Source of the DNA: an uncultured bacterium
GTDB taxonomy: Bacteria; Margulisbacteria; WOR-1; CAVSGV01
NCBI GenBank assembly: GCA_963768305.1
Contig: CAVYHE010000006.1
Span: forward strand, 10,692-74,691
Length of the DNA: 64,000 nucleotides
Reading direction: 5' to 3'
The notes under the pieces are model-generated. The model was not told the origin of the DNA. It searched no databases and worked only from the letters and a program-made list of their open reading frames with translations. Position 1 is the stretch's first letter. Each line of letters begins with the position of its first letter. The position numbers and the translations under genes were made by a program. This document shows positions 11,342 to 34,643 of the stretch, one piece after another.

Positions 11342-12118
11342 ATGCCCCATCAAAAAAATAAGGTCCCGAGCAGAAAGAACCTGAAAAGATCGGCCAGCTG
11401 GCTAGTTATGTCAATAGCTCTGGCGCTCGTCATCATTGCGATTATCACCGGGTTCGTCCTTTCACTTCCCGTCTGGAAAACATCAAATGTCAAGGTCATT
11501 GGCAATTCACTTCTTACGAAAGACAAGGTGATCAATATCGCGAAAGTTCCGCTTGGCGAAGATCTTTTCCTCATCGATCTGGATGAAATAAGGGAAAGAT
11601 TTTCCGGGATAATCCAGGTCAAGGATATCCGGATCGTCCGTAAGTTGCCGGACACTATTGCCATCGAAATAAAAGAGCGAGCTCCTTTCGCGATAGCGGT
11701 CATCGGAGGCGGAACATCACTGATCGATGATGAGGGTTATATCATAGCGAAGCAGGACCTGGGGCCCTCATCGGCGGGATACGATATCGTGAAATATCCG
11801 GTCATAAGGGGCATAAATAAAAAATCGCTTGAGAACGGCAACAGATTGAATTCCGGTGACAGGAAATTCATCAGATCTGCGCTGAATTCCATTTCAGGTC
11901 CGATGGCTGCGGGGACGATCCAGATAGACATCAGCAACAGGGATGATATAGCGGTTCTTATCGAGGATATCCTGAAAGTAAATATCGGCGATGCCGTAAA
12001 TGTTGAAAAAAAACTTGGCGTTGCCAAGGCGCTCATCGGGTCGCTGAAAGACAAATGGACAAAAGCGGCTTACATAGACGTAAAAGTTCCGGACAGCCCG
12101 GTCATTAAGTTCAAGTAG
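11342..12118 (+). CDS. ftsQ: cell division protein FtsQ (POTRA domain)
   Basis: Single N-terminal TM helix, then VKVIGNSLLTKDKVINIAKVPLGEDLFLIDLDEIRERF (POTRA). Sits between ddl and ftsZ. Confidence 0.8.
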   Translation: MPHQKNKVPSRKNLKRSASWLVMSIALALVIIAIITGFVLSLPVWKTSNVKVIGNSLLTKDKVINIAKVPLGEDLFLIDLDEIRERFSGIIQVKDIRIVRKLPDTIAIEIKERAPFAIAVIGGGTSLIDDEGYIIAKQDLGPSSAGYDIVKYPVIRGINKKSLENGNRLNSGDRKFIRSALNSISGPMAAGTIQIDISNRDDIAVLIEDILKVNIGDAVNVEKKLGVAKALIGSLKDKWTKAAYIDVKVPDSPVIKFK

Positions 12119-12223
12119 CTGTCAGTACTAAATTCCCCTTGCTTTTCCCCTGAACTCTGCTATATTACTGGGTTACACAGCGTCGGAATCCAATGTTGCA
12201 GGTGCAAAAACAGGTGAAAATAC

Positions 12224-13279
12224 GTGATCGGCGACGGAATAAAAAGTTTCGCTAAAATAAAAGTAATGGGAGTGGGCGGCGGGGGCACCAACGCCGTCAA
12301 CAGGATGATCGGCTCCGGCCTCAAAGGCGTTGAATTCTGGGCTACCAACACGGACCTTCAGGCGTTATCAGTATCGCTCGCGGACCACAAACTCCAGATA
12401 GGCGGAAAACTTACCAAAGGTCTCGGCGCAGGCTCCAACCCCGACATCGGCCAAAAAGCGGCTGAAGAATCCAAGGAAGAGATCAGAACGGCGATCGCCG
12501 ATGCGGACATGGTCTTCCTCACGGCCGGCATGGGCGGCGGAACGGGCACCGGTGCGTCGCCTCTTATCGCGGAGGTCGCCAGGGAAATAGGAGCCCTCAC
12601 CGTCGGCGTTGTCACAAAACCGTTCAGGTTCGAAGGACCGGTAAGGATATCGCAGGCGGAAAGCGGAGTGGTCCTGCTGAGAGAAAAAGTTGACGCCTTG
12701 ATAGTGATCCCGAATGACAAACTTCTTCAGGTAGTTGAAAAACGCACGTCCATCATCGACGCGTTCAAGATAGCCGATGATGTTCTCCGCCACGGCGTAA
12801 AAGGGATATCCGATCTCATCACAGTCCCCGGGCTCATAAATCTCGACTTTGCGGATATCAGGACGATAATGTTCGACGCGGGTTCCGCGATGATGGGTAT
12901 CGGGACAGCGTCAGGCGAGAACAGGGCGGTGGAAGCCGCGGAACAGGCGATATCGAGCCCGCTGCTCGAAGAAACTATCAATGGCGCGAAAGGCGTTGTT
13001 TTCAATGTCACGGGCGGAAGCGATCTGACGCTTTATGAAGTGAATGATGCTGCCGAGGTCATTTACAACGCTGTTGATCCGGAAGCGAACATAATTTTCG
13101 GCGCCGTGATAGACGAGAAATTACAGGGTGAAGTTGTCATCACGGTCATCGCCACCGGGTTCAAACATATTGAAAAAGAGATCGGCGCGGAAGAGACCTC
13201 GATAAGGACGAAGATAAGGCCCGAGCTTTTACAGCCAAAAGAGAAAATAGAACTCCCCGCGTTTTTAAAGAACGTTTAA
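12224..13279 (+). CDS. ftsZ: cell division GTPase FtsZ
   Basis: [13 protein letters not shown], the tubulin signature [10 protein letters not shown], and the C-terminal peptide [13 protein letters not shown] start. Confidence 0.95.
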
Positions 13280-13309
13280 TAATTCTTCACGAAGATTAAC
13301 TGGGAGACA

Positions 13310-13335
13310 GGGATTTTCCCGCGGAGCGGGATCCC
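13310..13335. terminator. GC-rich hairpin between ftsZ and tRNA-Gln (possible bidirectional terminator)
   Basis: GGGAT-TTT-CCCGC-GGA-GCGGG-ATCCC forms a 10-bp interrupted stem. There is no clear U-tract on either strand. Confidence 0.35.
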
Positions 13336-13388
13336 GCAACACATTATTATATTCCATAATAAGGAGGCGGGAGAACCCCGAAACCAAT

Positions 13389-13459
13389 CTGCCGGACTAG
13401 GATTCGAACCTAGATAGACAGATCCAGAATCTGTCGTCCTACCATTAGACGATCCGGCA
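13389..13459 (-). tRNA. tRNA-Gln (anticodon CUG)
   Basis: The reverse complement folds as a cloverleaf: acceptor UGCCGGA/UCCGGCA, anticodon arm ACAGA-UUCUGGA-UCUGU, T loop GGUUCGAAUCC. CCA is not encoded. Confidence 0.85.
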
Positions 13460-13483
13460 ATGATTCCATTTATTTGTCATTGG

Positions 13484-13726
13484 TCACTGCCACCACGGCG
13501 GATTCCACCATTGAGGCTGAAAAATCAGGATGAATAAGCCGTAAAAAACTATGAAGATCGAAAGCCCGATGAATATCTTGAACTGCCAAGACAGCGGCTC
13601 TTTCCACTTTTTTATCATCCAGTAAGAGAAAGCCAGTGCAATAAAGCCGATGATCGTGACCGATATCCCTTTAAATATCGGACTGCTGTAGGTCGCAATG
13701 AAGAAATTTATCCCTTTTGGTTCCAT
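13484..13726 (-). CDS. small membrane protein (3 predicted TM segments), hypothetical
   Basis: 80-aa hydrophobic ORF, co-directional with tRNA-Gln. No family recognised. Confidence 0.5.
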   Translation of the reverse strand: MEPKGINFFIATYSSPIFKGISVTIIGFIALAFSYWMIKKWKEPLSWQFKIFIGLSIFIVFYGLFILIFQPQWWNPPWWQ

Positions 13727-14399
13727 AATAGAAAGATTATATCACAGGGATTTGTTATTCGCGAGATTAGGAAGACAAAACCTTCATTTATATCTCAACT
13801 CGTTCTTTATCATTATATTTTAAACTTGATCAAAAAAAGCTTTTTATCTCGGATTCAGGGTGTATACTATGCTCGTTTCCATAAAAGATAATTTCATTAT
13901 AAAAAAGGAAGTGATGATCATGACAAGGGGTGCTATTTGTCATTCATTTCCGGTTCCGCGCCCAGATAAAAAGATCGACTTGATGACCAGATATTTTAAA
14001 TTATGGCGCAGTGTAAAACTTCTTCTTTTGACCGCCGGTATCATAGCATGGAGCATTTCTTCTGCCGGAGCGGATACATTCACGGTCTCGAATACTGATG
14101 ACAGCGGCGCAGGTTCTCTCAGGCAAGCCATCATCGATGCCAATTCCACTATAGGATCCAGCACGATCAACTTTACAAGCGATGTAAGCGGCACGATCAC
14201 TCTTTTGAGCAGTTTACCAACCACGAGCCAAACTATCACTCTTGATCTTTCAGGCGCGACAGGGATTGTTACGCTTGCAGGGAACACAATGGGTTTTGGC
14301 CAGCCGCTCACCTTGAATGGCGGCGCTCTTACGATCAGTGCGGATTCCGGGATGCCTGGCACAAACGCCCTTACTATTGCCGGCACAGGCGTCGCGACG

Positions 14400-16815
14400 C
14401 TGGATGTGACGGGTGGCGCGGCGATAAGCGCTACTACCGGGACTATTGGCGACAGCGCAGGCTCAACCGGCGAAGTCACTGTTGATAGCTCCACATGGGA
14501 GAACAGTTCTGATCTTACGGTTGGTAACGCAGGCGCAGGCAGTTTATTTATTTCAAATGGCGGGGCGGTGAGTAACAACCATGGTAATATCGGCTACCTC
14601 ACTGGTTCAAACGGCACTGTATCTGTTGACGGTACCGGCTCCACATGGGAGAACAGTTCTGATCTTACGGTTGGCAACTACGGAACAGGCGCCTTAACTA
14701 TTTCAGATGGCAGTGCGGTGACTAACGCCATTGGCATTATCGGCTACTGGGCCGGCTCAACCGGCGAAGTTACTGTTGACGACTCCACATGGACGAACGG
14801 TTCTTATCTTGTGGTTGGCGAAGTAGGCACAGGCGCCTTAACTATTTCAGATGGCGGTATTGTGAATAACGCCGCTAGTGCGATTGCTGACAGCCCCGGC
14901 TCAACCGGTACTGTAACTGTTGACGGCACCAGTTCCACATGGACGAACAGTTCTTATCTTAACGTTGGCAATATGGGTACAGCTGCTTTAACCATTTCAA
15001 ATGGCGGCACGGTGACTAACACCAATGGCTATATCGGCATAGCAGCTGGTTCAACCGGTACTGTAACTGTTGATGGCGCCGGCTCCACATGGGAGAACAG
15101 TTCTAATCTTACGGTTGGAGAATCAGGCACAGGCAGTTTATTCATTTCTAATGGCGGCACAGTGAGTAACGGTATTGGCTATATCGGCTACAACGCCGGC
15201 TCAACCGGGAATGTAACTATTGACGGCTCCGGCTCCGCATGGACGAACAGCGGCAGTCTTATAGTTGGCAACTCAGGCACTGGCAATTTATTCATTTCAA
15301 ATGGCGGTACAGTGAGTAACAACAATTGCTATATTGGCGATGACGCAGGCTCAACCGGCACTGTAACTGTTGACGGCACCGCCTCCACATGGACGAACAG
15401 CGGAGATCTTAATATTGGCAACTCAGGCACAGGCAGTTTAACCATTTCAAATGGCGGTGCGGTGAGTAACACCAATGGTATTATAGGCGCCAGCGCCGGC
15501 TCAACGGGCGAAGTCGTTGTTGACGGCCCCGCCTCCACATGGGAGAACAGCGCTGCTCTTATTGTTGGCGGCTCAGGCACAGGCAGTTTAAATATTTCAA
15601 ATGGCGGTGCGGTAAGTAACAACTATGGCTATATCGGCGGGTATGTAGGCTCAACTGGAACCGTATCTGTTGATGGTGCCGGCTCCACATGGACGAACAA
15701 CTATGATCTTGCTGTTGGCTCCTCTAGCACAGGTGCCTTAACTATTTCCAATGGCGGCGCGGTGAATGACGACAATGGAATAATTGGTTATATCGCTGGC
15801 TCAACCGGCACAGCAACTGTTGATGGTACCGGTTCCACATGGACGAACAGCGGAAGATCTTACTGTCGGAGGCTCAAGTGAAGGCGCTTTAACTATTTCA
15901 AATGGCGGAGTGGTGAGTAACAATAATGGCTATATTGGCTATTATGGAGATTCAACGGGTGAAGTTACCGTTGACGGCCCCGCCTCCACATGGGAGAACA
16001 GCGCTGATCTTTACGTTGGCAACTCAGGCACAGGCAGTTTATTCATTTCAAATGGCGGTACGGTGAGTGCTGACAACAGCTATATCGGGAACAATACTTA
16101 CTCAACCGGTACTGTAACTGTTGATGGCCCAGCCTCCACATGGACGAACAGTAGCAATCTTACAGTTGGCAATTCAGGCACGGGCAGTTTAACCATTTCA
16201 AATGGCGGTACTGTGAGTAACGACGCTGGAATAATCGGTGACAGCGCCGGCTCAACCGGCGAAGTCATTGTTGATGGTACCGCTTCCACATGGGAGAACA
16301 GCGGCAATCTTTTTGTTGGCCTCTTAGGCGCAGGCAGTTTAACCATTTCCAATGGCGGTACAGTGAGTAACAACAATGGCTATATCGGCTACAACACCGG
16401 CTCAACTGGCGAAGTTACCGTTGACGGCCCTGCCTCCACATGGGAGAACAGCGCTGATCTTACTATTGGCAGCTTCGGAACAGGCGCTTTAACTATTTCC
16501 AATGGCGGAACGGTAAATGACGGTGCTGGAATAATCGGTGACAGCGCCGGCTCAACTGGGAATGTAACTGTTGATGGTCCCGGCTCCACATGGACTAACA
16601 GTTCTGATCTTTATATTGGCAACTCAGTCACAGGCACCTTAACCATTTCAAATGGCGGCACCGTGAGTAATAACTATGGCTATATCGGCAATGCCGCCGG
16701 CTCAACCGGCGAAGTCACTGTTGACGGCCCCGGCTCCACATGGACGAACAACAATGATCTTACTGTTGGCAACTCAGGCACAGGCACCTTAACCATTTCA
16801 GATGGCGGGATGGTG
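14400..16815 (+). repeat. coding tandem repeat block A: ~16 units of 144-150 bp (48-50 aa)
   Basis: Unit consensus is roughly STGxVTVDGxGSTWxNSxDLxVGNSGTGSLxISNGGxVSNxxGYIGxxAG. The tccacatgg landmark recurs at 14491, 14641, 14785 and 14935. It resembles the T5SS/PEP-CTERM-associated repeat family. Confidence 0.85.
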
Positions 16816-17615
16816 AATGTTGGAAGCGGTTCCGGAACGATCACGCTGGCAGAAGGCGCCGGCTCGATCGGAACGCTCAATATAGGTTCGGGCGGTGCCG
16901 CTGGATCCGTAGAAGCCGCGGGTATTACAGGAGGCTCAGGCGCCGCTATCCTTAATTTTGATCATAATGAGGCGGGGTATATATTCGCGCCTGACATTAC
17001 CGGCTCACTCGGTGTTACCCAGACCGGCAGCGGCACGACCATCTTAACTGGCACCAACACATATGCAGGTGTTACGACGATCGATGCTGGGACACTCCAG
17101 ATCGGTGATGGTGGTACAGCAGGGAGTCTGGGTACAGGGGATGTAACGGATAACTCGTCGCTGGTATTCAACCACAGTGATGATCTGATCGTGTCAAATG
17201 CCATCTCGGGTACAGGAAGTTTCACCCAGAGTGGTACAGATACTCTTACTCTTACAGGTACCAATACATATACAGGAGCCACGGTCGTCAACACAGGCAC
17301 ACTTGAAGCAGGCGTGGTCGACGCGTTTGGCAGCAACTCGGCCGTGATAATGGCGGATGACCCGACTGCCGTATTGGATCTTAACGACTTCAATACGCAG
17401 ATCGGTTCTCTCACAGGCGGCGGGACATCGGGTGGGAATGTAATACTTGGCGCCGCGACCCTGACAATTGGCGGTGACAACACAAGCCCCACGGCCTACG
17501 CTGGTGAGATCTCCGGCACCGGTGCGCTGATCAAAGTTGGTACAGGCACTCTTACTCTTACTGGTACCAACATATATACAGGAGATACGACGATCAGTGA
17601 AGGGACGCTCCAGAT
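16815..17615 (+). repeat. PATR (autotransporter-associated beta-strand repeat) block 1
   Basis: GSGTTILTGTNTYAGVTTIDAGTLQIGDGGTAGSLG and GTDTLTLTGTNTYTGATVVNTGTLEAG are textbook PATR motifs. This block is paralogous to 23495-24300. Confidence 0.8.
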
Positions 17616-20600
17616 CAGTAGTGGCGGTACGGTAAATGATGGCGCTGGAATAATCGGCGACAGCGCCGACTCAACCGGCGAAGTCATTGTTGATGGTACC
17701 GGCTCCACATGGACGAACAGTTCTGATCTTACAGTTGGCAACTCAGGCACAGGTAGTTTATTTATTTCAAATGGCGGTACTGTGAATGCCGACAACAGCT
17801 ATATCGGGAACAATACTTACTCAACCGGAAATGTAACTGTTGATGGTACCGGCTCTACGTGGACGAATAGCGTGGATCTTGCAGTTGGCAACTGGGGTAC
17901 AGGCAGTTTAAATATTTCAAATGGCGGTGCGGTGACTAATACTGTTGGCGTTATTGGCTACAATACTGGCTCAACCGGGATTGTAACTGTTGACGGCTCC
18001 ACATGGACGAACAGTTCTAGTCTTACAGTTGGTAACTCAGGCGCAGGCAGTTTAACTGTTTTAAATGAAGGTGTGGTGAGTGCTGACTATCTTTTAGTTG
18101 GCAACTCAGGCACAGGTGCTTTAACTATTTCCAATGGCGGGGCAGTGAATAATGGCATTGGCGTAATTGGCTACAGCATTGGCTCAACCGGTACTGTAAG
18201 TGTTGATGGTACCGGCTCCACATGGAATAACAGCGGGGATCTTACTGTTGGCAACTCAGGCACAGGCAGTTTATCCATTTCAAATGGCGGTACGGTGAGT
18301 AACGGCACTGGCTATATTGGCGACGTTGGAGGCTCAATCGGCGAAGTAACTGTTGACGACTCTACATGGACGAACAGTAGTTATCTTGTGGTTGGCTTAT
18401 TCGGAACAGGTGCTTTAACTATTTCCAATGGCGGCGCAGTGAGTAACAACGATGGCGCCTATATCGGCTATTTTGGAGGCTCAACCGGTGAAGTCATTGT
18501 CGACGGTCCCGCCTCCACATGGGAGAACAGCGCTGATCTTTTCGTTGGCGACTCAGGCACAGGCAGTTTATTTATTTCAAATGGCGGCACAGTGAATAAT
18601 AACTATGGCTATATCGGGAACAATATTTACTCAACCGGTACTGCCACCGTTGACGGAACCGGCTCCACATGGACTAACAGCTTTTATCTTATGGTAGGCA
18701 ACTCAGGTACAGGCAGTTTAACTATTTCAAATGGCGGCGCGGTGAGTAACACTAATGGCTTTATCGGCTACAACGCCGGCTCAACTGGTGAAGTCATTGT
18801 TGACGGCCCCGGCTCCACATGGGAGAACAGTTCTGATCTTTATGTTGGCGCCTTGGGCACAGGCAGTTTAACCATTTCAAATGGCGGTGCGGTGAGTAAC
18901 ATCAATGGCTATATCGGCGACTATGAAGGCTCAACCGGCGAAGTCACTGTTGATGGTACCGGCTCCGCATGGAATAACAGCGGGGATCTTAAGGTTGGCA
19001 ACTCGGGCACAGGTTCCTTAACTATTTCAGATGGCGGCGCAGTGAGTAATGGCATTGGTTATATCGGGAACATCGCCGGCTCAACCGGTACTGTAACCGT
19101 TGACGGCATAGGCTCCACATGGATGAACAGCGATTATCTTTTCGTTGGCAGCTCAGGTACAGGTTCCTTAACTATTTCAGATGGCGGTACGGTGAGTAAT
19201 AATGGCGTTGGTATAATTGGCACTAATGCCGGTTCAAATGGCACTGTAACTGTTGACGGCCCCGGTTCAAAATGGGAGAACAGTGGCAATCTTATGGTTG
19301 GTGGCTCAGGTACAGGCAGTTTATTCATTTCAGATGGCAGTACGGTGAGTAACGGCGCTGGCTATATCGCCTACGGTATTGGCTCAACCGGGACTGTAAC
19401 TGTTGACGGTGTCGGCTCAACATGGGAGAACAGCGGAGATCTTACTGTTGGCGAATCAGGAACAGGTACTTTAACTATTTCTAATGGCGGGATGGTGATT
19501 AGCTACGCTGGAATAATTGGTGATAGCGCCACTTCAACCGGCATTGTAACTGTTGATGGTGCCAGCTCCACATGGGAGAACAGTTCTGATCTCATAGTTG
19601 GCAACTCAGGCACAGGCAATTTATTCATTTCAAATGGCGGTACGGTGAGTGCCGACAACAGCTATATCGGGAACAATACTTACTCAACCGGCAATGTAAC
19701 TGTTGAGGGCTCCGGCTCAACATGGACGAACAGCGGGGATCTTACAGTTGGCGGCTCAGGCACAGGCAGTTTATTTGTTTCAAATGGCGGTATGGTGAGT
19801 AATACCAATGGCTATATCGGGAACAATACTTACTCAACCGGTACTGTAAGTGTAGATGGTATCGGCTCCACATGGGAGAACAGCGGAGATCTTACTGTTG
19901 GCGAATCAGGCACAGGCAATTTATTCGTTTCAAATGGCGGCACGGTGAGTGACAACAATGGTTATATCGGCAACTACGCTTACTCAACCGGCAATGTAAC
20001 TGTTGACGGCTCCGGCTCAACATGGACGAACAGCGGCAATCTTACGGTTGGCGAATTAGGCACAGGCGTTTTAACTATTTCAGATGGCGGTATGGTGAAT
20101 GACAACAATGGCTATATCGACATCTTCGGCGGCTCAAACGGGACTGTCAATGTTGATGGCTCCACATGGACGAACAGCGGCAATCTTACGGTTGGCAACT
20201 CAGGCACAGGCAGTTTAGCGATTTTAAACGAGGGTACGGTGAGTAGCGCATATGGCGTGATCGGTGCCGGTGCCGGCTCAACCGGCGAAGTCACTGTTGA
20301 TTATTCAACATGGACGAACAGTTCTGATCTTACTGTTGGAAGCTTCGGAACAGGCGGTTTAACTATTTCAAACGGCGGCGCGGTGAGTGACAACTTTAGC
20401 TGTATCGGCTACGGCACCGGCTCAACCGGGACTGTAACCGTTGACGGCCCCGTATCTACATGGACTAACAGCGACAATCTTACGGTTGGCAACTCAGGCA
20501 CAGGGAGTTTATTCATTTCAACTGGCGGTACTGTGAGTGACAACAACAGCTATATCGGTAACAATGCTTACTCAACCGGTACTGTAACTGTTGATGGTAC

Positions 20601-23495
20601 CGGCTCAACATGGACTAACAGCGGTAATCTTACTGTTGGCAACTCAGGGACAGGGAGTTTATTTATTTCAACTGGCGGTACTGTGAGTGACAACAACAGC
20701 TATATCGGGAACAATGCTTACTCAACCGGTACTGTAACTGTTGATGGTACCGGCTCCACATGGGCGACCAGCTATACCTTGTATGTTGGCCAATCAGGCA
20801 CAGGCGCCTTAACCATTTCCAATGGCGGCGTGGTAATGAACACAAATTGCAATATCGGCTACAGTACTGGTTCAACTGGTGAAGTCACTGTTGACGATTC
20901 CACATGGGCGAACAGCGGGGATCTTACTATTGGCAACTCTGGTACAGGGAGTTTATTTATTTCAACTGGCGGTACAGTGAGCGACCACAGCGGAACTATC
21001 GGCCTCAACGCCGGCTCAATCGGTACTGTAACCGTTGACGGCTCTACATGGACCAATAATTATGATCTTAATGTTGGCATCTCAGGAACAGGCGCTTTAA
21101 CAATTTCAGGTGGCGGTACGGTGAGCAATGCCAATGGCTGTATCGGCAACGGCGCCGGCTCAACAGGCACTGTAACTGTTGATGGTATCGGCTCCACATG
21201 GACTAATGGCCTTGATCTTAAAGTTGGCTTCTCTGGCACAGGCGCTTTAAATATATCAAATGGGGGTGAAGTGAGTGATAGGGGTGGCGTAATTGGCTAT
21301 TATGGAGATTCGACCGGCGAAGTCACTGTTGACGGTGCCAGCTCCACATGGACTAATAGTTCCAATCTTACAGTTGGCGAATCTGGTACAGGCAGTTTAA
21401 CTGTTTCAAATGGCGGAGCGGTGAGCAACACCAATGGCTATATCGGAGACTATGAAGGCTCAACGGGCGAAGTCGCTATTGACGGCGCCACATGGAATAA
21501 CAGTTCTGATCTTTACGTTGGTACCGCAGGCGCAGGCGCTTTAACCATTTCAGATGGCGGTACGGTGAGCGACAACTATGGCTATATCGGCAACAACGGC
21601 GGCTCCACCGGCACTGTAACTGTTGACGGTAGCGGCTCCGCATGGACGAACAACAACGATCTTACGGTCGGCAATTCAGGCGCAGGCGCTTTAACCATTT
21701 CAGATGGCGGTACGGTGAGTAACATAATGGGTTGTATCGGCCTCAACGCCGGTTCAACCGGTACTGTAACTGTTGACGGCTCCGCATGGGAGAACAGTGC
21801 TGCTCTAATAGTTGGCAACTCAGGCGCAGGCAGTTTAACTATTTCAGACGGCGGTACAGTGAGTGACAACTATGGCTATATCGCCAACAATGCCAGCTCA
21901 ACCAGCACTGTATCTGTTGATGGTACCGGCTCCGCATGGGAGAACAGCGGCAGTCTTACTGTTGGCAGATTGGGCACGGGCAGTTTATTTATTACAAATG
22001 GAGGCACGGTTAGTAACAACTATGGTTATATCGGCTACAACACCGGCTCAAGCGGCACTGTAACTGTTGATGGTTCCACATGGACGAACAGCAACGATCT
22101 TACGATCGGCAATTCAGGCGCAGGCAGTTTAATTATTTCAAATGGCGGTATGGTGAATAGCAGCGCTGGCTATATTGGTTACAGCACCGGCTCAACCGGC
22201 GAAGTCGCTGTTGACGGCTCCACATGGAATAACAGTTCTGATCTTATTATTGGCGGCTCAGGCACAGGCAGTTTATTCATTTCAAATGGCGGTACAGTGA
22301 GTAATAACTATGGCTATATCGCCTACAACCCCGGCTCAACCGGTACTGTAACTGTTGACGGTATCGGCTCCACTTGGACGAACAACAATGATCTTTATGT
22401 TGGCTTCTCAGGCGCAGGCGGTTTGATCATTTCAAACGGCGGCACAGTGAGTAACGGCGCTGGTTATATCGGTTACAACACTTACTCAACCGGTACTGTA
22501 ACTGTTGACGGCCCCGGCTCCACATGGACGAACAGCGGCAATCTTACTGTTGGTAACTCAGGCACAGGCAGTTTAGCCATTTCAAATGGCGGCACAGTGA
22601 GTGCCGACAACAGCTATATCGGCAACAACGCCGGCTCAACCGGCGAAGTCATTGTTGATGGTGCCGGATCCACATGGGAGAACAGTTCTAACCTTACGGT
22701 TGGCTTCTCAGGCACAGGCGGTTTGATCATTTCAAATGGCGGTACGGCGTATAACTACTATGGAACAATTGGCGATAACACCGGCTCAACCGGTACTGTA
22801 ACTGTTGACGGCTCCGGCTCCACATGGACCAACAACAATGATCTTACGGTTGGCAACTCAGGCACGGGCAATTTATTTATTTCAAGTGGCGGTACGGTGA
22901 GTAACGCAAATGGCTATATCGGCTATAACGCCAGCTCAACCGGCGAAGTCATTGTTGACGGCGCCGGCTCCACATGGGAGAACAGCTCTGATCTTACGGT
23001 TGGCGAATCAGGCACAGGCAGTTTATTCATTTCAAATGGCGGTACGGTGAATAGCTGGTATGGCTTTATCGGCTACTACACCGGTTCAACCGGCACTGTA
23101 ACTGTTGACGGCGCCGGCTCCACATGGACGAACGCCAATACTATTTATGTTGGCGACGAAGGCACAGGCAGTTTAACCATTTCCGAGGGCGGGGTGGTGA
23201 CTAACATCAATGGCTATATCGGCAACGCCGCCGGCTCAACCGGCACTGTAAGTGTTGATGGTCCCGCCTCCACATGGACGAACAATGATACTCTTACGAT
23301 TGGCAATTCAGGCACAGGCAGTTTAACCATTTCAAATGGCGGTGCGGTGAGTAACACCTATGGCTATATCGGCACTGACGCCGGCTCAACCGGTACTGTA
23401 ACTGTTGATGGCCCCGGCTCCACATGGACTAACGGCTATGATCTTTTCATTGGTATCTCAGGCACAGGTGCTTTAACCATTTCAGATGGCGGTAT
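17615..23495 (+). repeat. coding tandem repeat block B: ~40 units of 144-150 bp
   Basis: Same unit as block A. Some neighbouring units are almost identical, for example 20491-20610 versus 20641-20760. Confidence 0.85.
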
Positions 23496-25640
23496 GGTGA
23501 GCGTAGGGAGCGGTTCCGGAACGATCACGCTGGCAGAAGACGCCGGCTCGATCGGAACGCTCAATATCGGTTCGGGCGGCGCCGCTGGATCCGTCGAAGC
23601 CGCGGGTATTACAGGAGGCTCAGGCGCCGCTATTCTTAACTTTGACCATAATGAGTCGGCGTATGTATTCGCGCCTGACATTGCCGGCTCACTCGGTGTT
23701 ACCCAGACCGGCAGCGGCACGACCATCTTAACAGGCACCAACATATATACAGGAGTTACAACGATCGATGCTGGAACACTCGAGGTTGGTGATGGTGGTA
23801 CAGCAGGCAGCCTTGGTACAGGTGATGTAACGGATAACTCGTCGCTGGTATTCAACCACAGTGATGATCTGACAGTGTCAAATGGGATCTCAGGTACAGG
23901 AACACTTACCCAGAACGGTTCAGATACTCTTGTCCTTACAGGCACAAACATATATACAGGAGCCACGATTGTCAACACAGGCACGCTTGAAGCGGGCGTG
24001 GTCGACGCGTTTGGCAGCAACTCGGCCGTGATAATGGCGGATGACGCGACTGCTATATTGGACCTTAATGATTTCGATACGCATATCGGTTCTCTCACAG
24101 GCGGCGGGACAACGGGTGGGAATGTAATGCTTGGTGCCGCGACCCTGACGGTTGGCGGTGATGATACAAGCCCGGCAGCCTATGCTGGAGAGATCTCCGG
24201 CACCGGTGCGCTGACCAAAACTGGCACAGGCACTCTTACTCTTACCGGTACCAACACATATACAGGTGTTACTACGATCAATGCGGGGACGCTCCAGATT
24301 GGTGACGGGGGAACATCAGGCAGCCTGGGTACAGGGGATGTAACGGATAACTCATCGCTGGTATTCAACCGCAGTGATGATGTGACGGTATCTAATGTTA
24401 TCTCGGGCACAGGGACACTTACCCAGAACGGCAGCGGGACAACCATCCTTACTGGTACCAACACATATACAGGAGTTACTACGATCGATGCGGGGACGCT
24501 CGAGGTTGGTGATGGTGGTACAGCAGGCAGCCTTGGTACAGGGGATGTAACGGATAACTCGTCGCTGGTATTCAACCACAGTGATGATTTGACAGTGTCA
24601 AATGGGATCTCAGGTACAGGAACACTTACCCAGAACGGTTCAGATACTCTTGTCCTTACAGGCACAAACATATATACAGGAGCCACGATTGTCAACACAG
24701 GCACGCTTGAAGCGGGCGTGGTCGACGCGTTTGGCAGCAACTCGGCCGTGATAATGGCGGATGACGCGACTGCTATATTGGACCTTAATGATTTCGATAC
24801 GCATATCGGTTCTCTCACCGGCGGCGGGACAACGGGTGGGAATGTAATGCTTGGCGCTGGGATCCTGACAGTCGGCGGTGATAATACAAGTCCGGCAGCC
24901 TACGCTGGTGAGATCTCCGGCACAGGGGCCCTGATTAAAACTGGCACAGGCACTCTTACTCTTACTGGTACCAACACATATACTGGAGTTACTACGATCG
25001 ATGCGGGGACTCTCCAGGTTGGAGATGGAGGGACAGCAGGGAGTCTAGGTACAGGGGATGTAACGGATAACTCATCGCTGGTATTCAACCGCAGTGATAA
25101 TGTGACGGTATCAAATGCTATCTCAGGTACAGGGGCGCTTACCCAAAACGGTACAGATACTCTTACTCTTACTGGCGCCAACACATATACAGGAGTTACG
25201 ACGATCGATGCCGGTACTCTCCAGGTTGGTGACGGTGGTACTACAGGCAGCCTGGGAACAGGTGATGTTACGGATAACTCCGCGCTGGTGTTCAACCACA
25301 GTGATGATTTGACGGTGTCTAATGCAATCTCAGGAACAGGGACACTTACCCAGAACGGCACAGATACTCTTATTCTTACTGGCACCAACACATATACGGG
25401 AGTTACGACGATCGATGCCGGAACGCTCGAGGTTGGTGATGGGGGTACAACAGGGAGTCTGGGTACAGGGGATGTAACGGATAACTCGTTACTGGTGTTC
25501 AACCACAGTAATGATTTGACCGTATCAAATGGGATATCAGGTACAGGGACACTGACCCAGAACGGCAGCGGGACAATAATCCTTTCCGGTGCCAGCTCAT
25601 ATACAGGAACCACTACCATCAACTCGGGGACATTGGATAT
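23495..25640 (+). repeat. PATR block 2, including a near-identical duplication with a 720-bp offset
   Basis: About 12 PATR motifs. Positions 23761-24140 and 24481-24860 align at an offset of exactly 720 bp, with roughly 225-bp stretches at 100 percent identity. Confidence 0.85.
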
Positions 25641-26254
25641 ACATCAAGATCGATCATTGACAGGAGACCTGACATTAGCAGGGGGCACACTGGAACTGGG
25701 AGCTAATACCCTGACAGAAACAGGCGTCTATACTCAAGGCGCGGGAACCGTCCTGAAACTTACCACCAACAGCACGACCAATTTTGGCAGGATAGTAAGT
25801 TCCAGCGATGCAACTGTTAATGCCGATAGCTCAGTGAATGTGACGGTAGGCAGTTATTTACTGAACGGCGCTGAATTTTCGATCATAGACGGCGCAGGCG
25901 GCACAGGCGTAAATGTCCCGGGGACGATCACTTCAAGCGATCATCGAATAATTTTCTCTGGCTTAAGCTTGGATGGCGACCTTATCTTAATTGCAAAGCG
26001 CCTCCAGACTAACTTTGCCGGGTTAGCCGATAATTCTAATGCCGCGGCCGTGGGCAAAGTTCTCGATCATATTACAAACCCCTCGAGCGATATGCAAACT
26101 GTCTTGTTTGTGCTCGAGAACCTAAGCGATTCCGATATACCCGCCGCGCTCGATACGTTGACGCCTGTTGTAGACTCGGGAGCTATAGATACGAGCACAA
26201 TATCGCTCAACAGCTTTGTCGGAGCCGCCCTCGATAGGATCGAAAACGGAAGCA

Positions 26255-27097
26255 AGGCGGACCCGATATGGGGTAAAGTTTACAGCAGTAATCTTACTCA
26301 AGGATCACAAAATGACATAGGGGGATTTAATGCATCCGACTCAGGCATGGTAATTGGCATTGACCGCCCGTTCACCGACACCCTGACCCTTGGCATGAGC
26401 GGCGGTTATGCGAACGGAAATGTCAACTCAAACGACAATAACGCAAAAACGAATATAGGCAGCACACAGCTCACCTTATACGGAGAATATCAGGACAAAG
26501 AACGCCCGTATTTTATCGATGCCGCCGGCTCTTTAGCATTGAACTCGTATAACGGCTCACGCCGCATCAGCGTAGGCTCCATATCCAGGAAAGCGGATTC
26601 CGAATATCCGGGTCTCCAGTATGGTGCTTACTTAGGAGGCGGGTACAAATTTCGATCTTGGGAACAAATTAGAGGTTACGCCGCTCTTATCGCTTCAGTA
26701 CAGCCATCTTTCTCTCGCAGACTATACTGAAACCGGAGCCGGGTCCATGAACTTGGATGTTTCAAGTCAGGACTATGATATGCTGCAGGCGGGCGTGGGC
26801 GCAAGGATAATCTACCCTGCCGAATTGCAGTGGTGCAACCTCACTCTCACAGGCCACGCAAAATTGCTCTATGACTTTGTCGGCGACAAAGTGGTGGTCA
26901 TATCGAAATTTACCGGCGGGGGCGGATCGTTCACCTCAGAGGGGGCCGATCTGATACGATGCAGCTTGAATGCCGGCGGCGAGCTTGTCTTCGACTTTAG
27001 GAACCATTTCTCTGTTATCGGAGATTGTAATTTGGAAACGGAAGATAATTTCCTCGGTATCAGCAGTTCGCTAACGGCGAGGTATGAATTTGAATAA
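26255..27097 (+). other. autotransporter beta-barrel translocator domain (~280 aa) of the giant gene
   Basis: Alternating beta-strand pattern: DPIWGKVYSS...GFNASDSGMVIGIDRPF...LTLGMSGGYANG...TQLTLYGEY. After the frameshift it continues LQYSHLSLADYTETGAGSMNLDV...GISSSLTARYEFE. Confidence 0.8.
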
Positions 27098-27148
27098 TAT
27101 AATATTTTGAATTTGAAGCTCAAATTCCGGACGGTCAGTTGATATTGT

Positions 27149-27861: not shown

Positions 27862-28689
27862 ATGACACCGCGCCAAGAATTCATCGATCGGGTTTATTCC
27901 GTTAAAAAACGGTTCCTGGGCATGTACCAGGCCGCCCATGCGGGGCATATTGCCTGTTCGCTCTCCTGCGCCGAGATATTGGTGTTTTTAAGGTTTTTCT
28001 GGATGCATGAAAAGGACCGCCTTATCCTGTCCAAGGGGCACGCGGCGGCGGCCATGTATTCGGTCTTAGCCGAATACGGCATCCTGTCAGAAGAGGACAT
28101 AAAGACCTTTTATCAGAACGGCACCTATCTGGGAGCGCATCCGCCCGCCAATAAGATAAAAGGCATTCCTTTTGCCACCGGCAGTCTGGGCCACGGCCTT
28201 TCCATCATTGCCGGAATGTCCCTGGCGGCAAAGTTAAAGAATGAAAAACACCTGTGTTTTTGCGTGACATCGGACGGCGAATTGGATGAAGGAAGCATCT
28301 GGGAAGCGGCATTGTTCATCTCCCATCATAAACTGAACAATCTGGTCTGGTTGATAGACCGAAATAATATACAGGGCCTTGGCAGGACTGAAAGCGTGCT
28401 GGCGCTGGAGCCGTTGCCCGCAAAACTAAAAGCTTTTGGGCTTTTTGTGGCCGAAGCGGATGGCCATGATTACGGATCACTTGACGCGGCTAAAAATGAA
28501 TGCCAGCATGACCCGGCGGCAGTTTCATTGCCCAAGGTGATCATCTGTAAAACCGCCAAAGGACACGGCGTAAGCTTTATGGAAAATACGGTTGACTGGC
28601 ATTACCTGCCGATGGATAACGAAAATTATAAAAAAGCGCTCGAAGAGCTGGAGATCGGCTATCATAAGTCAAAAGAGGAGCATCGATGA
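27862..28689 (+). CDS. transketolase, N-terminal (ThDP-binding) subunit
   Basis: HIACSLSCAEIL, SKGHAAAAMYSVLAEYG, GSLGHGLSIIAGM and SDGELDEGSIWEA match the split-transketolase N section. Confidence 0.85.
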   Translation: MTPRQEFIDRVYSVKKRFLGMYQAAHAGHIACSLSCAEILVFLRFFWMHEKDRLILSKGHAAAAMYSVLAEYGILSEEDIKTFYQNGTYLGAHPPANKIKGIPFATGSLGHGLSIIAGMSLAAKLKNEKHLCFCVTSDGELDEGSIWEAALFISHHKLNNLVWLIDRNNIQGLGRTESVLALEPLPAKLKAFGLFVAEADGHDYGSLDAAKNECQHDPAAVSLPKVIICKTAKGHGVSFMENTVDWHYLPMDNENYKKALEELEIGYHKSKEEHR

Positions 28690-29594
28690 GAGCTGATTTT
28701 GCCCGCGTTATGGTTGAGCTGCATGATAAACATCCTAACTTTATAATGTTAACCGCTGACCTTGGATACATGGCACTGGAAAAGGTCAGAGATAAATATC
28801 AGGACCGTTTTATTAACGCAGGGGTAGCCGAACAAAATCTTATCTCGCTTGCCGCGGGCTTGGCTTATGAAGGATTTGTTCCGTGGGTATATAATATTGC
28901 CCCCTTTGGCGTGTTGAGGCCATATGAACAGATCAGGAATGATGTCTGCCTTCATAATCTTCCGGTAAAGATCATTGGCAATGGGGGAGGCTATGGCTAC
29001 GGTATTATGGGTCCGACCCACCATACCCTGGAGGACATCGCAGTGATGCGGGTGTTGCCCAATATGAAAGTTTACGTGCCGCTTACTGCTTCGGACGTGG
29101 AAGAAGCCGTAAAAATGATGGCCCGGGATGCCTCGCCTAATTATTTAAGGTTGAACATGGCTTCCAAGCTTGGCATGCCCATTGAAAGTTTCAAGCCATG
29201 GAGAAAATTAAAGAACGGGCATAAAGCGATCGCCATCGGCACCGGCCCGGTAATCGCAAACCTGCTGGAAATAAGTGATAAGGACCTGCTGGAGGAAATT
29301 GAGATATGGTATGTCAGCCAACTCCCAATAAGCGAACTCCCTGAAGAATTAATTACCAGCATTAAAGAAAAAAGGAAAGTCATTACCATGGAAGAGCATT
29401 ACGGGCAGTGCGGCCTTAAAGAGACCATTGCCGATCTTATCTTAAGAAAAGCTGATCGCCAGATAAGCTATAAGAGCATTTATGCCCTCGGTTATCCTGC
29501 GGGGGAATCGGGCAGCCAAAAATGGTACCAGGAACAGTCCGGCCTGGCGGGCGAAGGGCTGATAAAAAACCTAAAGGAGCTGGTTCATGATTAA
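28686..29594 (+). CDS. transketolase, C-terminal (pyrimidine-binding) subunit
   Basis: ATGA overlap with the N subunit. FINAGVAEQNLISLAAGLA and GPTHHTLEDIAVMRVLPNM are present. Confidence 0.85.
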   Translation: MRADFARVMVELHDKHPNFIMLTADLGYMALEKVRDKYQDRFINAGVAEQNLISLAAGLAYEGFVPWVYNIAPFGVLRPYEQIRNDVCLHNLPVKIIGNGGGYGYGIMGPTHHTLEDIAVMRVLPNMKVYVPLTASDVEEAVKMMARDASPNYLRLNMASKLGMPIESFKPWRKLKNGHKAIAIGTGPVIANLLEISDKDLLEEIEIWYVSQLPISELPEELITSIKEKRKVITMEEHYGQCGLKETIADLILRKADRQISYKSIYALGYPAGESGSQKWYQEQSGLAGEGLIKNLKELVHD

Positions 29595-31564
29595 AGAAGA
29601 AATAAATAAACTGGAAGGGCCGATTGCGGTTTTTGGGGCGGGTGGATTTATCGGCGCTAACCTGCTCAGGACCATTCTTGAGGTCAGGGATGATTGTTTT
29701 GGGATTACCCACCAGAAATTCATTCCCTGGCGTCTTTCGGGGATCTCCGCAAAAAATATCATCTATGCCGACCTGAAACTTCCTTCAACCGTATCCGGGA
29801 TCTTTGACAAGTTTAATTTTAAAACTATCTTTAATTTTGCGGCTTACGGCGGCTACTCCAAACAGGACGACACGGACTTGATTTATAAGATCAACTTGCT
29901 CGGAGCAGTGGATCTTTTGGAAATAGCGGCGCGCCAAGGCTTTTCCGCCTATGTGCATGCGGGATCATCTTCTGAGTATGGGTTCAATGCCAGCGCACCC
30001 AAAGAAAGCGCCGAGCTAATGCCGAACAGCCATTATTCTGTTTCAAAGATCGCCACCGCTTCGCTTATGCGTTATCTTGGCCGCACAAAGGAACTGCCTG
30101 TCATTAATCTGCGCATTTATTCGGCTTATGGGCCTTACGAAGAGCCTGACCGGCTGATCCCGGTGATCCTTAAATGCGGGATGGAGGGCAAATATCCTTC
30201 GCTGGTAGATCCCGATATATCACGTGATTTTATTTATGTTCAGGATGTGGTTGAAGCTGCTGTATTGGCTGCGACGCTCGGCGTTAAAAAATTACCAGGC
30301 GGCTCCTTAAATATCGCCACCGGTAAAAAAACCACCATTAGAGAAGTTGCCCGGTTAATCAAGGAGATATTCAATCTTAAAGTTGAACCTAAATGGGGTA
30401 CGATGCCCAACAGGAGCTGGGATATCAGGGATTGGTACGGAGACCCTGCTTATGCCAAAGAGATATTGGGTTGGCAGGCAAAAACTTCTTTAAAAGACGG
30501 CTTGATCAAAACCATTGATTGGGTAAAGAGCCAAAAGGCCGCTCCGGATCTTATGGCCGCCGCTCCATTGGCCGTTCCTAAAAAAATATCGGCCGTCATT
30601 GCCTGCTACCGGGATGCCAAGGCTATTCCCATCATGCACGATCGACTAACCAAAGTATTCGCTCAAATGAAGGTGGATTATGAGATCATTTTTGTCAATG
30701 ACGCAAGCCCGGATAACACAGATGATGTGCTAAAGGAGATCACTGCTCAAGATGATCACGTTATTACCATTGAACACACAAGAAATTTTGGTTCTCAGAG
30801 CGCCTTCCTGAGCGGCATGCAGGTCTCTACCGGTGACGGGGTCGTACTCCTCGATGGCGACCTGCAGGATCCGCCCGAAATGATCCCTGAATTTTACAAA
30901 AAGTGGCTGGAGGGCTATGAGGTTATCTACGGCCGAAGAGTAAAGCGCGAGGTTTCCCGGATCTTAAATGTCTGTTACAGGGCTTTTTACCGGATCTTCA
31001 GGGGAATGTCATACGTGCCCATGCCTCTGGACGCCGGTGATTTCTCGTTAATGGACAGAAAAGTGGTCAACGAGCTTCTGGCCCTGCCGGAGACCGATCA
31101 ATTCTTGCGAGGACTAAGGGCATGGGTAGGGTTCAAACAAGTTGGAGTTGACTATATGAGACCCGAGCGGATGTTCGGCGTGACCACAAATAACTGGCAG
31201 AAAAATATCTGGTGGGCTAAAAAGGCCATCTTTTCCTTCAGTTTTGTCCCTCTGGAGTTGCTTAGTTATTTGGGTTTGCTGCTGACCGTAATTTCATTCC
31301 TGGCACTCATCGGGCAGATCATCGCGAGGATCTTCATGCCCAATATTCCTCAGGGCATTACCACCATTATCGTCCTTATTCTATTCTTTGGGGCCATACA
31401 ATTACTGGCCATTTCCATTATCGGCGAATACCTTTATAAAAATTTTCGAAGAAACCAAGAAAAGGCCAAAATTTATCCGCAAGTCAATTCGCCAGGGCAA
31501 TACTTACCTTACAGCCGGGGAGGAAATAAACAACTTTTTAGATCAAAGAAAAAACCGCGTTTAA
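29587..31564 (+). pseudogene. fused NAD-dependent epimerase/dehydratase and GT2 polyprenyl-phosphate glycosyltransferase (GtrB/ArnC-like); C-terminus frameshifted at an A5 run
   Basis: N-terminal half: GAGGFIGANL and YSVSK (YxxxK). C-terminal half: IIFVNDASPDNT, LDGDLQDPPE and two TM helices, then IGEYLYK. Dropping one A at 31438-31442 restores IFEETKKRPKFIRKSI and a stop at 31562-31564. As assembled, the ORF runs on into the next gene (track ORF 29587-31995). Confidence 0.75.
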
Positions 31565-31566
31565 TT

Positions 31567-32471
31567 ATGGCATACCAAATCAAACACTGCATTTTTTGCG
31601 GCAATAATGAAAAGCTCAAAGAGCTCTATCCCCGTAATTTTACCGATAAAGATCTAAACCCGGCCGTATTTTCGGCGCGCAGGGATACCGATCGTTTTCA
31701 TTATAAGATCGTGCGCTGTCAGAACTGCGGCTTGATATTTTCGAGGGAAGTTCTGCCGGAAGAAGAACTTTCACGGTTATATTCGCAAAGCGCAGTAACT
31801 TTTGATGAATATACCGCCATCATCCGCAGGGATTATTTGCGCCCCCTCAAGCCGTTTTTAGATCTGGTCAATAAAGGCTCGGCCCTCGAGATCGGCTGCA
31901 GCAGCGGATTTTTCCTCGAAGAGCTGTTAATGCAGGGATTTAAGGAAGTTCACGGCTGTGATCCCAGTCTGGAGGCCAAAAAAGGCAGACCCTGAGATCA
32001 AGGGGAAATATATCTTCCGGATTTTTCAAAAAAGGAGCCTACAAAGATAACAGTTTTGACCTTGTTTGCTCATTTCAAACTTTGGACCATCTGGACGATC
32101 CGGCTGGAACCGTAAGGACCTGTTATGAAATTTTAAAGCCGGACGGGCTCATATATTTTATCACCCATGATGCCAGACAGCCTTCAGGCGAAAATATTGC
32201 GGGATAGATCGCCGATAATAGACGTGGAACACATTTATTTATTCAATAAAATAACTTTAAGCCGTTTATTTACGGAGGCGAATTTTGCTGTTCTTAATGT
32301 TGGGGACATTAAGAACAGTTACCCTATCAATTACTGGCTAAGGCTGGCGCTTAAGAACGGCCGATCCGGTAATATTTTAAAATATGCCGTCGAAAGAACC
32401 GGCCTGGGCTAGCTTCTATCCCTATCGCCGCGGGAAATATTTTTGTGGTGGCGAGATGCAGAAAGAATTAA
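31567..32471 (+). pseudogene. class I SAM-dependent methyltransferase with an N-terminal Cys4 motif; at least 3 (probably 5) +1 frameshifts
   Basis: MAYQIKHCIFCGN...CQNCGLIF and LEIGCSSGFFLEEL (motif I). After frame corrections near 31984, 32007 and 32178 it reads SFDLVCSFQTLDHLDDPAGTVRTCYEILKPDGLIYFITHDA and then SLQAKILRDRSPIIDVEHIYLFN. The tail IPIAAGNIFVVARCRKN ends at 32469-32471. Confidence 0.6.
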
Positions 32472-34542
32472 TAATGACTGCCCGGGCTAAAATATACAAT
32501 TTCTTAAATAGATATTTACATAAAATAAACCTTGAGAATATTATTATCGGTATTTGTTTTTTGATTTTAGCGGTAAAGTTTTACTCGGTCGCAGGCAGAT
32601 TTTTAGACACGGACGAAGAATATTATTTTTACATTACCTCGGCAATAAGTAAAGGGGTGAATATATATGCGGAGCTGAATTTCTCTATTCGCCCATCCCA
32701 TGGTATCTCTGTTCCGTGTTTTTCAGGCTTTTCCATAATCTGTATCAATCACTCCTAACGATAAGATTGCTTATAATCTCCCTTTCCCTGCTGAGCTTTT
32801 TTCTGATCTTTGATATGCTGAAAAGACTAAGGGCCTCTTGGTTTGTGATCCCGGTCACATTCTTTATACTTTACTCTATGCAATTCAGCCTTAAATTAAT
32901 GGAATATCGATCGGACAACGTACTGTTCTTTGTGCTTATTTTACAGGGGTATCTGATGTTTTTAATGTCACAATATACGGCTTTCTCCCCTTTAAAAATC
33001 GCCGCTGTTATTTTCTTGGCTTTTCTCAGTTTTCATATCAACCAAAAAGCGATCATCATAGAACTGCCTTTGTTGTTCGCATTTTGCGTTTGCTTCTTTA
33101 ATGATTTAAGCGTTTCGTTCTGATCTATAAAAAAGCCCTGCTCTTTTTTGGCGCAATTATAATTGTTTGCCTGATCTTTTCCAGGAACTACCATCAATTC
33201 TTCTGTCAATCATATATTTACGGCCCTATTATGTTAAATCAATTTTCGAAGATATCCCCTTCGGCTTCCTTTGTCAATAATCTTAATCTTTTGATCCCAT
33301 TTATTAAGGATAACTTGGCGTTTTAAATTCATCGGCTTGATCTCATCAATAGTTCTTTTACTTGCTCTAAAAACAATAAAAATTACCTGGTGCCGCTCAT
33401 GTTCTTGGCAGGGGCTGTGGTTTTAGTTTTAATAGCGCCTTTCCCTTTCATACACTATCAAGCTTATTGCGTTTGGGCCGTCTTGTTCTCACTCCTTTAC
33501 CTGATCAGCATCTGCATTAATTCCTGGCCCCATCGTAAAATATTGCTTTTCGTTATTTTCTTTCTGTTAGCTGCCAGCGGGGCTCTTACATTTCAGCGTT
33601 ATGAATTTCCTTTTCAAAATCTAAAAGGATACGCCACTGAAATTGACCATATGAGGAATAATCGGGGAAAACAAACTTGCTTCTTTTGGTGGATCGTCCA
33701 TTAACATCGAAAGTGACTTTCCGCTCTGGAGCGGGGAGCTTCAATTTGTGTATGGCACTAAAGCCCTTCAAACCAACACTGCAAGAACTACTTTAAAGGA
33801 TAAAGCGACTAAATTTGTTTTTATTGATCCGCGCAAAATATCGAAAAGACCCTTTATGGCGAAGACGGCTATTTTATAAAAGCTAATTATCAAAAATGTC
33901 ATGGCTTGCCTCTCATGATCGCTTCTAAATGGGCTTATCTTGGCCCTGGACAACGGACAATCAACATTGAAATTGCCGGCAAGTTCAAGGTTATGCCATT
34001 TTCAAATATATCCAATTCGATCACTCTGGATAACTATAAGCTAAAAAGCTTTCAGACCTTGTACCTGAAACAAGGGCCGCATTCTATTAAATCTGCCCTG
34101 CCAGCAGCTTTATTAATTGAGTTTGATTCAGCAAAGATCAACTCCGAAAGTTTTGATAATTTAAATGGTTCAAAATATCAATTTATACAGTACAATCAGG
34201 ATTTTTCAGGAAAATTCGAACTTTTAGGGGCAATTAAATACGAAAAATCCGGCAAGGCCTTTTATCGATTCTTTTGGAAAGCACTATCAGATATCAATGA
34301 TGGACTAATGGCATTTCATCATTTTTACGGCAGCGGAGGCAATTATATTAACGGTATAAATGTAGATCCAACGGATGGCTGGTTGACTCAGAGCTTTAAA
34401 AAGCGGTGAAGTAATTTCCTACGAGTTCTCAGTGGTTCTGAATAAAGAATATAAGTCCATGGATATCGGCTGGTATTATGAGCAAGAATGGAGCAGACGG
34501 ATACCATGCGGGGCAGGGACTTTTTACAGGATGTATATCTGA
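32456..34542 (+). pseudogene. GT-C-fold (ArnT/PMT-like) membrane glycosyltransferase candidate, heavily fragmented
   Basis: AT-rich. The pieces 32456-32758, 32716-33123, 33390-33704, 33906-34409 and a tail to 34542 are colinear in different frames. An N-terminal TM helix is followed by a DTDEEYY loop and many TM segments, then a soluble C-terminal domain. Family assignment is by architecture only. Confidence 0.45.
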
Positions 34543-34576
34543 TCTTCTGATATACTAATGGTTGATAATCTGCTAA

Positions 34577-34643
34577 GGCCCTATCGTCTAGTGGTTAGGA
34601 CAGCGCCCTCTCAAGGCGTAAACACGGGTTCGACTCCCGTTAG
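34577..34643 (+). tRNA. tRNA-Glu (anticodon CUC), 5' 67 nt only; the 3' acceptor strand is replaced by element sequence
   Basis: GGCCCUA-UC-GUCUAGUGGUUAGGAC-A-GCGCC-CUCUCAA-GGCGU-AAAC-ACGGG-UUCGACU-CCCGU-UAG, then UUCU, which cannot pair with GGCC. The arms closely parallel E. coli tRNA-Glu. Confidence 0.8.

Follow-up and report, generated by a model that had tools for sequence, protein, structure and literature searches.

The stretch of DNA analysed here, 64,000 nucleotides (nt) of contig CAVYHE010000006.1 from an uncultured bacterium (hereafter the window), raises the question of whether three colinear open reading frames (ORFs) on the + strand between positions 13,860 and 27,097 belong to one giant autotransporter gene and, if so, whether the cell holds that gene intact and whether a passenger of such length poses a new problem of export. 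The three ORFs (13860-15881 in frame 2, 15784-26730 in frame 0 and 26747-27097 in frame 1) belong to one gene that two single-base insertions (+1 shifts) interrupt, and at both junctions the residue pattern carries on without loss into the next frame. As a whole, the locus is probably best explained as a single classical type Va autotransporter gene whose product is a surface rod of about 4,391 amino acids (aa). The initial annotation had likewise read the three ORFs as one gene, and the sequence is indeed continuous across both shifts.

When one base is deleted at each site, a single ORF of 13,176 nt results, which encodes 4,391 aa from the ATG at 13920. An alternative start at Met22 (position 13983) gives a protein of 4,370 aa, the length that the initial annotation had estimated; the sequence AGGAAG lies approx. 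9 nt upstream of the ATG at 13920. The first frameshift falls in the middle of repeat unit 10 and separates ...STWTNSG from DLTVGG..., whereas the second lies within the barrel and separates ...GGGYKF from DLGNKLEVTPLLSLQY.... Removal of the extra T at the second site restores GGGYKFDLGNKLEVTPL, in agreement with the homologue consensus, and the homologue alignment is unbroken across the repaired position. The parts of the gene, with the evidence for each in brackets, are as follows:

13920..14072, + strand: start codon and N-terminal signal region, aa 1-51 (inspection and hydropathy scan)
14073..14462, + strand: head of 130 aa (aa 52-181), starting DTFTVSNTDDSGAGSLRQAIIDAN, Gly- and Thr-rich
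14463..16830, + strand: repeat block 1, 16 TIGR04393 units (hidden Markov model (HMM), regular expression, Tandem Repeats Finder (TRF))
15854..15855, + strand: frameshift 1, an extra A in AGCGGA[A]GATCTT (GGAAGAT here versus GGNGAT in other units)
16831..17670, + strand: PATR block 1, three PATR (HMM)
17671..23535, + strand: repeat block 2, 39 TIGR04393 units (regular expression, TRF)
23536..25620, + strand: PATR block 2, nine PATR with a 207-nt periodicity (HMM, TRF)
25621..26265, + strand: linker from beta-helix to barrel, with an NPSSDMxTV motif kept in Omnitrophota homologues
26266..27097, + strand: autotransporter beta-barrel PF03797, full length with stop, ending ...RYEFE
26650..26652, + strand: frameshift 2, an extra T in TACAAATT[T]CGATCTT (AAATTTC)

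This order of parts, including both PATR blocks and the barrel, had been proposed from the sequence, and profile searches agree with it. PF12951 matches in 3 + 9 stretches with 89.9 and 246.8 bits (cut-off 27), TIGR02601 matches with an E-value of 1.8e-27 (94.7 bits), and the C-terminus, once its frame is repaired, matches positions 1-252 of the 255 in the PF03797 profile (E 2.4e-54). The proposed identity of the repeat, the T5SS/PEP-CTERM-associated repeat TIGR04393, is borne out by a seven-unit sample (E 1.2e-120, 393 bits, cut-off 23). In agreement with the approx. 55 units first counted (approx. 16, then approx. 40), a regular-expression anchor finds exactly 55 units of 48-51 aa (16 + 39), with one irregular unit of 71 aa that carries an extra half unit; TRF detects arrays of period 150 with 15.9, 3.0 and 36.4 copies. 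The scanned pieces, which leave out most of repeat block 2, gave no match to any other Pfam or NCBIfam domain. A crude regular expression did not find the PEP-CTERM motif in the window protein, the C-terminus of which is the autotransporter barrel.

Within the signal region, a basic n-region is followed by a hydrophobic core (LLLLTAGIIAW; Kyte-Doolittle peak of 2.35 at aa 34-44) and then by SAGA/DT, the start remaining ambiguous between 13920 and 13983. The head matches no Pfam or NCBIfam family; a homologue search returned only short fragments sharing its first approx. 55 residues, and a single-sequence AlphaFold2 model of poor quality (predicted local distance difference test score, pLDDT, 52) is all-beta. 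The head may be linked to a 'CSLREA'-type N-terminal motif. The passenger (14073-25620, approx. 3,850 residues) contains 220 Asp and 68 Glu compared with 6 Lys and 5 Arg, and Gly, Thr, Ser and Asn account for 58% of its residues; so few basic residues are in keeping with a passenger competent for secretion. On the - strand, the repeat and PATR arrays also contain antisense ORFs of 176-240 aa (13940-14578, 16962-17492 and 23436-25622), which most likely reflect the scarcity of stops in repetitive sequence rather than genes.

The repeat units share 74% DNA identity on average (range 62-91%), so the array does not consist of one copy stacked many times over. The PATR parts contain the largest near-repeats: one of 986 nt (90.6%) within PATR block 2, and one of 915 nt (88.6% nucleotide identity) that PATR block 1 shares with the beginning of PATR block 2. 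From the latter it appears that the gene grew by duplication of a module consisting of an array end plus PATR, in addition to amplification of single units.

Structure prediction, which had been suggested as a check for a beta-helix, supports one. An AlphaFold2 run on six units (19234-20133), for which the alignment was built from further six-unit stretches of this gene, returned an all-beta model with a pLDDT of 97.3 and a predicted template modelling score of 0.94. In this model, the 50-aa unit contains six strands (7, 3-4, 3, 7, 4 and 3 residues), so that every unit should contribute two rungs of three strands each to a three-sided beta-helix. A Foldseek search of the PDB gave one significant match, the passenger of TibA (4q1q; E 1e-5, probability 1.00, template modelling score 0.45-0.49); below it stand Ag43 structures, tapirins, tailspikes and pectate-lyase-like helices, as well as beta-helical ice-binding proteins among the weak, non-significant matches (E > 0.5). 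By sequence, the repeat block has no match in the PDB at E <= 1, even as a profile. The rise of a beta-helix is usually approx. 0.48 nm per rung, and the 111 rungs of the repeat units alone would thus span about 53 nm; with the rungs of the PATR blocks and the head included, the acidic rod is predicted to measure roughly 60-75 nm. A literature search found no paper that names TIGR04393, and the model would give a first structural reading, two beta-helix rungs per unit, of a widespread repeat.

Whether this gene is intact in the cell depends on how the two insertions are understood. Both are quite probably indel errors of the assembly, judging by the coding sequences elsewhere in the window, where frameshifts escaped the initial annotation. 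Two of the cases are:

49549-50810, + strand: EPSP_synthase-family (murA-type) gene with three +1 shifts, at approx. 50,030, 50,487 and 50,625
35569-36102 (Resolvase) and 34611-35594 (Recombinase/zinc ribbon), - strand: large serine recombinase, split by a +1 shift

In the murA-type gene, one frame matches the Pfam profile over positions 1-147 and the following frame over 173-322, and the conserved residues carry on into every new frame. In addition, a methyltransferase domain is broken at approx. 31,980 by a -1 shift, such that an 802-aa ORF runs into it and the rest lies in another frame (31962-32207). Because the assembly is frameshifted even in a murA-type gene, repair of the autotransporter frame is justified, and because there are approx. 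7 shifts in the 64-kb window compared with 2 in the 13.2-kb gene, the latter correspond to the background rate of the assembly and the gene is probably intact in the cell. The three shifts of the murA-type gene are far likelier to be artefacts than decay, since the adjacent ddl-ftsQ-ftsZ cluster is intact, and they are the strongest sign of indel errors in this assembly. The murA-type gene sits downstream of an apparent operon of co-directional, abutting genes (44.4-49.1 kb).

Several observations weigh against an intact, surface-exposed adhesin and have to be set beside this reading. In the assembly the gene is interrupted at two sites; there is a long homopolymer at neither, and the second lies in unique rather than repeated sequence. 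The 8 kb upstream, from BipA to ftsZ, are free of frameshifts, so that indel errors are unevenly spread over the window. The signal peptide was recognised by visual inspection, and the adhesin role is drawn solely from architecture and fold likeness. Finally, the protein ends in ...RYEFE, whereas all 19 of the 19 closest barrels end in ...RY[KDGNRS]F, so that the aromatic last residue (beta-signal) of type Va proteins is absent from the assembled product; an extra residue after the Phe could weaken recognition by the beta-barrel assembly machinery (BAM). The codons at this point (27083-27097) are gaa ttt gaa taa; with one extra T in 'gaatttgaataa' a stop would directly follow ...RYEF, so the terminal ...FE may be a further indel. 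Several of these same points would suit a very recent genuine pseudogene, in which both insertions are real and the product is a 673-aa N-terminal fragment without a barrel, as would its apparent acquisition as an insertion confined to this lineage, a kind of cargo that is frequently lost. Such decay is nonetheless unlikely: the 10.9 kb past the first shift stay open, neither these nor the 0.45 kb past the second contain a stop or other decay, the frameshift density equals the background of the window, and the murA-type gene was hit three times by similar +1 shifts while its protein sequence remained conserved, which is implausible as decay. Phase variation and programmed frameshifting were also considered and rejected, as the sites contain neither repeat tracts nor long homopolymers.

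Errors of assembly could also have affected the length itself, through expansion of the repeat or PATR arrays or through the joining of a foreign fragment, in which case the true gene would be much shorter. In favour of this view are the two large duplications described above, including identical stretches of 200 nt or more, the demonstrably error-prone assembly, and the nearest barrels, which come from a different phylum. However, the diverged units are each unique and anchorable, and reading frame and unit register are held over all 55 of them. The host genes on both flanks are syntenic with related genomes, so that a chimera would need two false joins, and the GC content of the gene (50.8% versus 48% in the flanks) is unremarkable. 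Thus, the repeat array is probably not an assembly product, and we consider a much shorter true gene highly improbable. A third alternative accepts an intact gene but not an adhesin: the rod might serve as a spacer or coat, as a cation-, mineral- or ice-binding surface, or as a passenger that is cleaved and released. The passenger is extremely acidic and regular (288 acidic versus 11 basic residues), it has no distinct tip domain apart from the 130-aa beta head, and ice-binding beta-helices appear among its weak fold matches. Those matches are not significant, however, whereas the sole significant one is the self-associating adhesin TibA, with Ag43 next, and the characterised long beta-helix autotransporters are adhesins; on balance, a non-adhesive role appears rather improbable.

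If the gene is an intact type Va autotransporter, its product would be exported by Sec, after which BAM would insert the C-terminal barrel. The passenger would then thread out from C- to N-terminus and fold rung by rung outside the cell, with folding as the drive. Because such export is sequential, length should add time but no new requirement. The rod is predicted to be displayed on the surface, anchored on the outer membrane, where it might act as an adhesin or aggregation fibre. By analogy, attachment or aggregation is the most likely function, since no catalytic domain was found in the scanned pieces and the nearest folds are TibA and Ag43.

The surroundings of the gene indicate how it may have come to its present place. 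Upstream lie BipA, ABC transporter genes, ddl, ftsQ and ftsZ, and downstream a nitroreductase gene, a split transketolase and an epimerase/glycosyltransferase gene. The BipA protein of the window is 75-77% identical to proteins of Candidatus Margulisiibacteriota, WOR-1 or Saganbacteria and 92-94% identical at the amino acid level to metagenomic relatives. Exact look-ups of the nitroreductase, FtsQ and BipA of the window gave no record; one cluster member, encoded on a 101-kb contig, is 100% identical to this BipA. Seven related contigs keep the block from BipA to ftsZ at approx. 82% nucleotide identity, and in all seven ftsZ is followed by a 79-82-aa ORF, tRNA-Gln and the nitroreductase gene within approx. 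0.5 kb; none of the seven carries the autotransporter between ftsZ and the nitroreductase gene. In the window, the same interval contains the following features:

13299..13316, + strand: 18-nt exact copy of the relatives' tRNA-Gln 3' end, just past the ftsZ stop; a boundary remnant
13388..13460, - strand: tRNA-Gln(CTG) (Rfam), with compensatory changes in all stems compared with the relatives' tRNA-Gln
13484..13726, - strand: small hydrophobic ORF of 80 aa, conserved in relatives
27120..27139, - strand: diverged 20-mer resembling a tRNA 3' end, where relatives have the real tRNA-Gln 3' end by the nitroreductase stop

Since the relatives lack the gene and remnants of tRNA ends border the segment, the gene appears to be a lineage-specific insertion, accompanied by local rearrangement, at tRNA-Gln, an aspect that the initial annotation did not register. 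Compared with the related genomes, the small ORF and tRNA-Gln are inverted relative to ftsZ. The three tRNA-Gln features (13299-13316, 13388-13460 and 27120-27139) bound the autotransporter segment, which suggests recombination at tRNA-Gln. No integrase was found within the autotransporter-bearing segment. An invertible promoter switch, considered in view of the inversion upstream, was rejected, as the inverted segment consists of the tRNA and the small ORF; there are no convincing flanking inverted repeats and no promoter-like excess. The Rfam scan found two tRNAs only.

Other features of the neighbourhood can be noted. ftsQ stands directly before ftsZ (351 aa; 11342-13279) with no ftsA between them, an arrangement that recurs in the gene lists of the seven related contigs with the exception of L039. 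Between the nitroreductase gene and tRNA-Glu (27862-34577) lie the split transketolase genes and the 802-aa epimerase/glycosyltransferase ORF, a region occupied in related genomes by one gene of 683-688 aa without a Pfam match; a chain of short ORFs at 32137-33123 may be further broken coding sequence. The segment 34577-40173, which starts at tRNA-Glu(CTC) (34577-34648), has a low GC content (34-39% compared with approx. 48%) and holds the split serine recombinase. It is a genomic island that two related contigs (L036 and L037) lack, since these align to tRNA-Glu and then from 40,173 onward.

The nearest barrels and linkers occur in metagenome-assembled genomes of Omnitrophota, with 34-49% amino acid identity over 518 aa and at most 49-50%; when metagenomes were scanned with the barrel region, no close relative turned up. 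Genomes were scanned with a seven-sequence alignment, and lengths were measured as ORFs on the fetched loci; the listing of homologous proteins, in which all matches are shorter than approx. 1.75 times the query, is biased and was not used for lengths. On 34 Omnitrophota loci the ORFs measure 450-2,428 aa, and 6-8 TIGR04393-like units occur in only three. It is reasonable to suppose that the gene entered the lineage, probably Margulisiibacteriota, at the tRNA-Gln locus between ftsZ and the nitroreductase gene, and that its array grew by amplification of units and duplication of the array-plus-PATR module. Transfer of the gene across phyla is plausible from these sequence relationships. The bolder proposal, that this is the longest type Va autotransporter and TIGR04393 array yet, passed from an Omnitrophota-like donor to Margulisiibacteriota by tRNA-Gln recombination and used for long-range attachment, is doubtful as a whole. 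If it were true, the gene would be a naturally occurring test of how long a passenger a barrel can export. A survey of giant genes lists Margulisbacteria among the phyla rich in very large genes (bioRxiv 10.1101/2023.11.21.568195).

The TIGR04393 family comprises 11,461 cluster representatives at E <= 1e-3. The 150 best-scoring of these reach lengths of 5,990 aa (PEP-CTERM-type), and 73 of the 150 carry a PEP-CTERM motif according to a crude regular expression. Among the same 150, the window protein is the longest of the autotransporter type and has the most units (57 HMM matches compared with 42 in the next), a count biased by the fact that the HMM was trained on its own units. Autotransporters that have this repeat and a confirmed PF03797 barrel measure 3,385, 3,379, 3,185 and 2,545 aa, and characterised adhesin passengers range from 280 to 3,333 aa (PMC9289746). 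The gene thus tops the known length distribution but does not lie beyond it. The initial annotation, which had presented this length as a puzzle of export, was accordingly sound in its anatomy but overstated the significance: export of long passengers is already exemplified by the 3,786-aa Fap2 and by the same-repeat autotransporters of 3,185-3,385 aa, so that no new puzzle arises and our understanding of type V secretion is unchanged by the gene. If intact, the protein would nevertheless be among the longest monomeric autotransporters on record, and its near-perfectly regular passenger could serve as a model for the limit of processive, folding-driven export through a 12-strand barrel. The locus may also illustrate how, in a little-studied phylum, a surface-fibre gene comes to occupy a variable site linked to a tRNA.

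Among known systems, Fap2 of Fusobacterium nucleatum offers a close parallel in design. This type Va adhesin has an extracellular region of 3,430 residues and a 47-nm beta-helix formed by 2,905 residues (PMC12397386), and, like the window protein, it is a monomeric autotransporter with a giant passenger built as one rod-shaped beta-helix, a linker and a C-terminal barrel. The two differ in that the window protein is approx. 16% longer, consists of a regular 50-aa unit and PATR, lacks an extended tip region and belongs to an uncultivated environmental lineage; no sequence kinship was detected, as judged by the search of the repeat block against the PDB (E <= 1), Fap2 itself not having been compared directly. 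Of the self-associating autotransporters (TibA, AIDA-I and Ag43), TibA and then Ag43 are the best fold matches to the modelled repeat block, both having a three-sided right-handed beta-helix passenger on a PF03797 barrel, but the window protein is approx. 4 times longer, with a rung of 25 aa and a unit of 50 aa. This likeness is one of fold only: the scanned pieces of the protein matched none of the Pfam or NCBIfam families particular to these autotransporters, and no heptosyltransferase family was found among the flanking ORFs scanned. The Omnitrophota autotransporters, which belong to a different phylum from the housekeeping genes of the window (BipA), have 0-8 units in 450-2,428 aa and a terminal Phe compared with the ...FE seen here. 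One of them (L005, 1,183 aa), with a matching head motif NTNDSGLGSLRQAI, eight repeat-unit HMM matches, one PATR-like motif found by regular expression only and a C-terminus ending in F, presents the architecture of the window protein at a quarter of its size.

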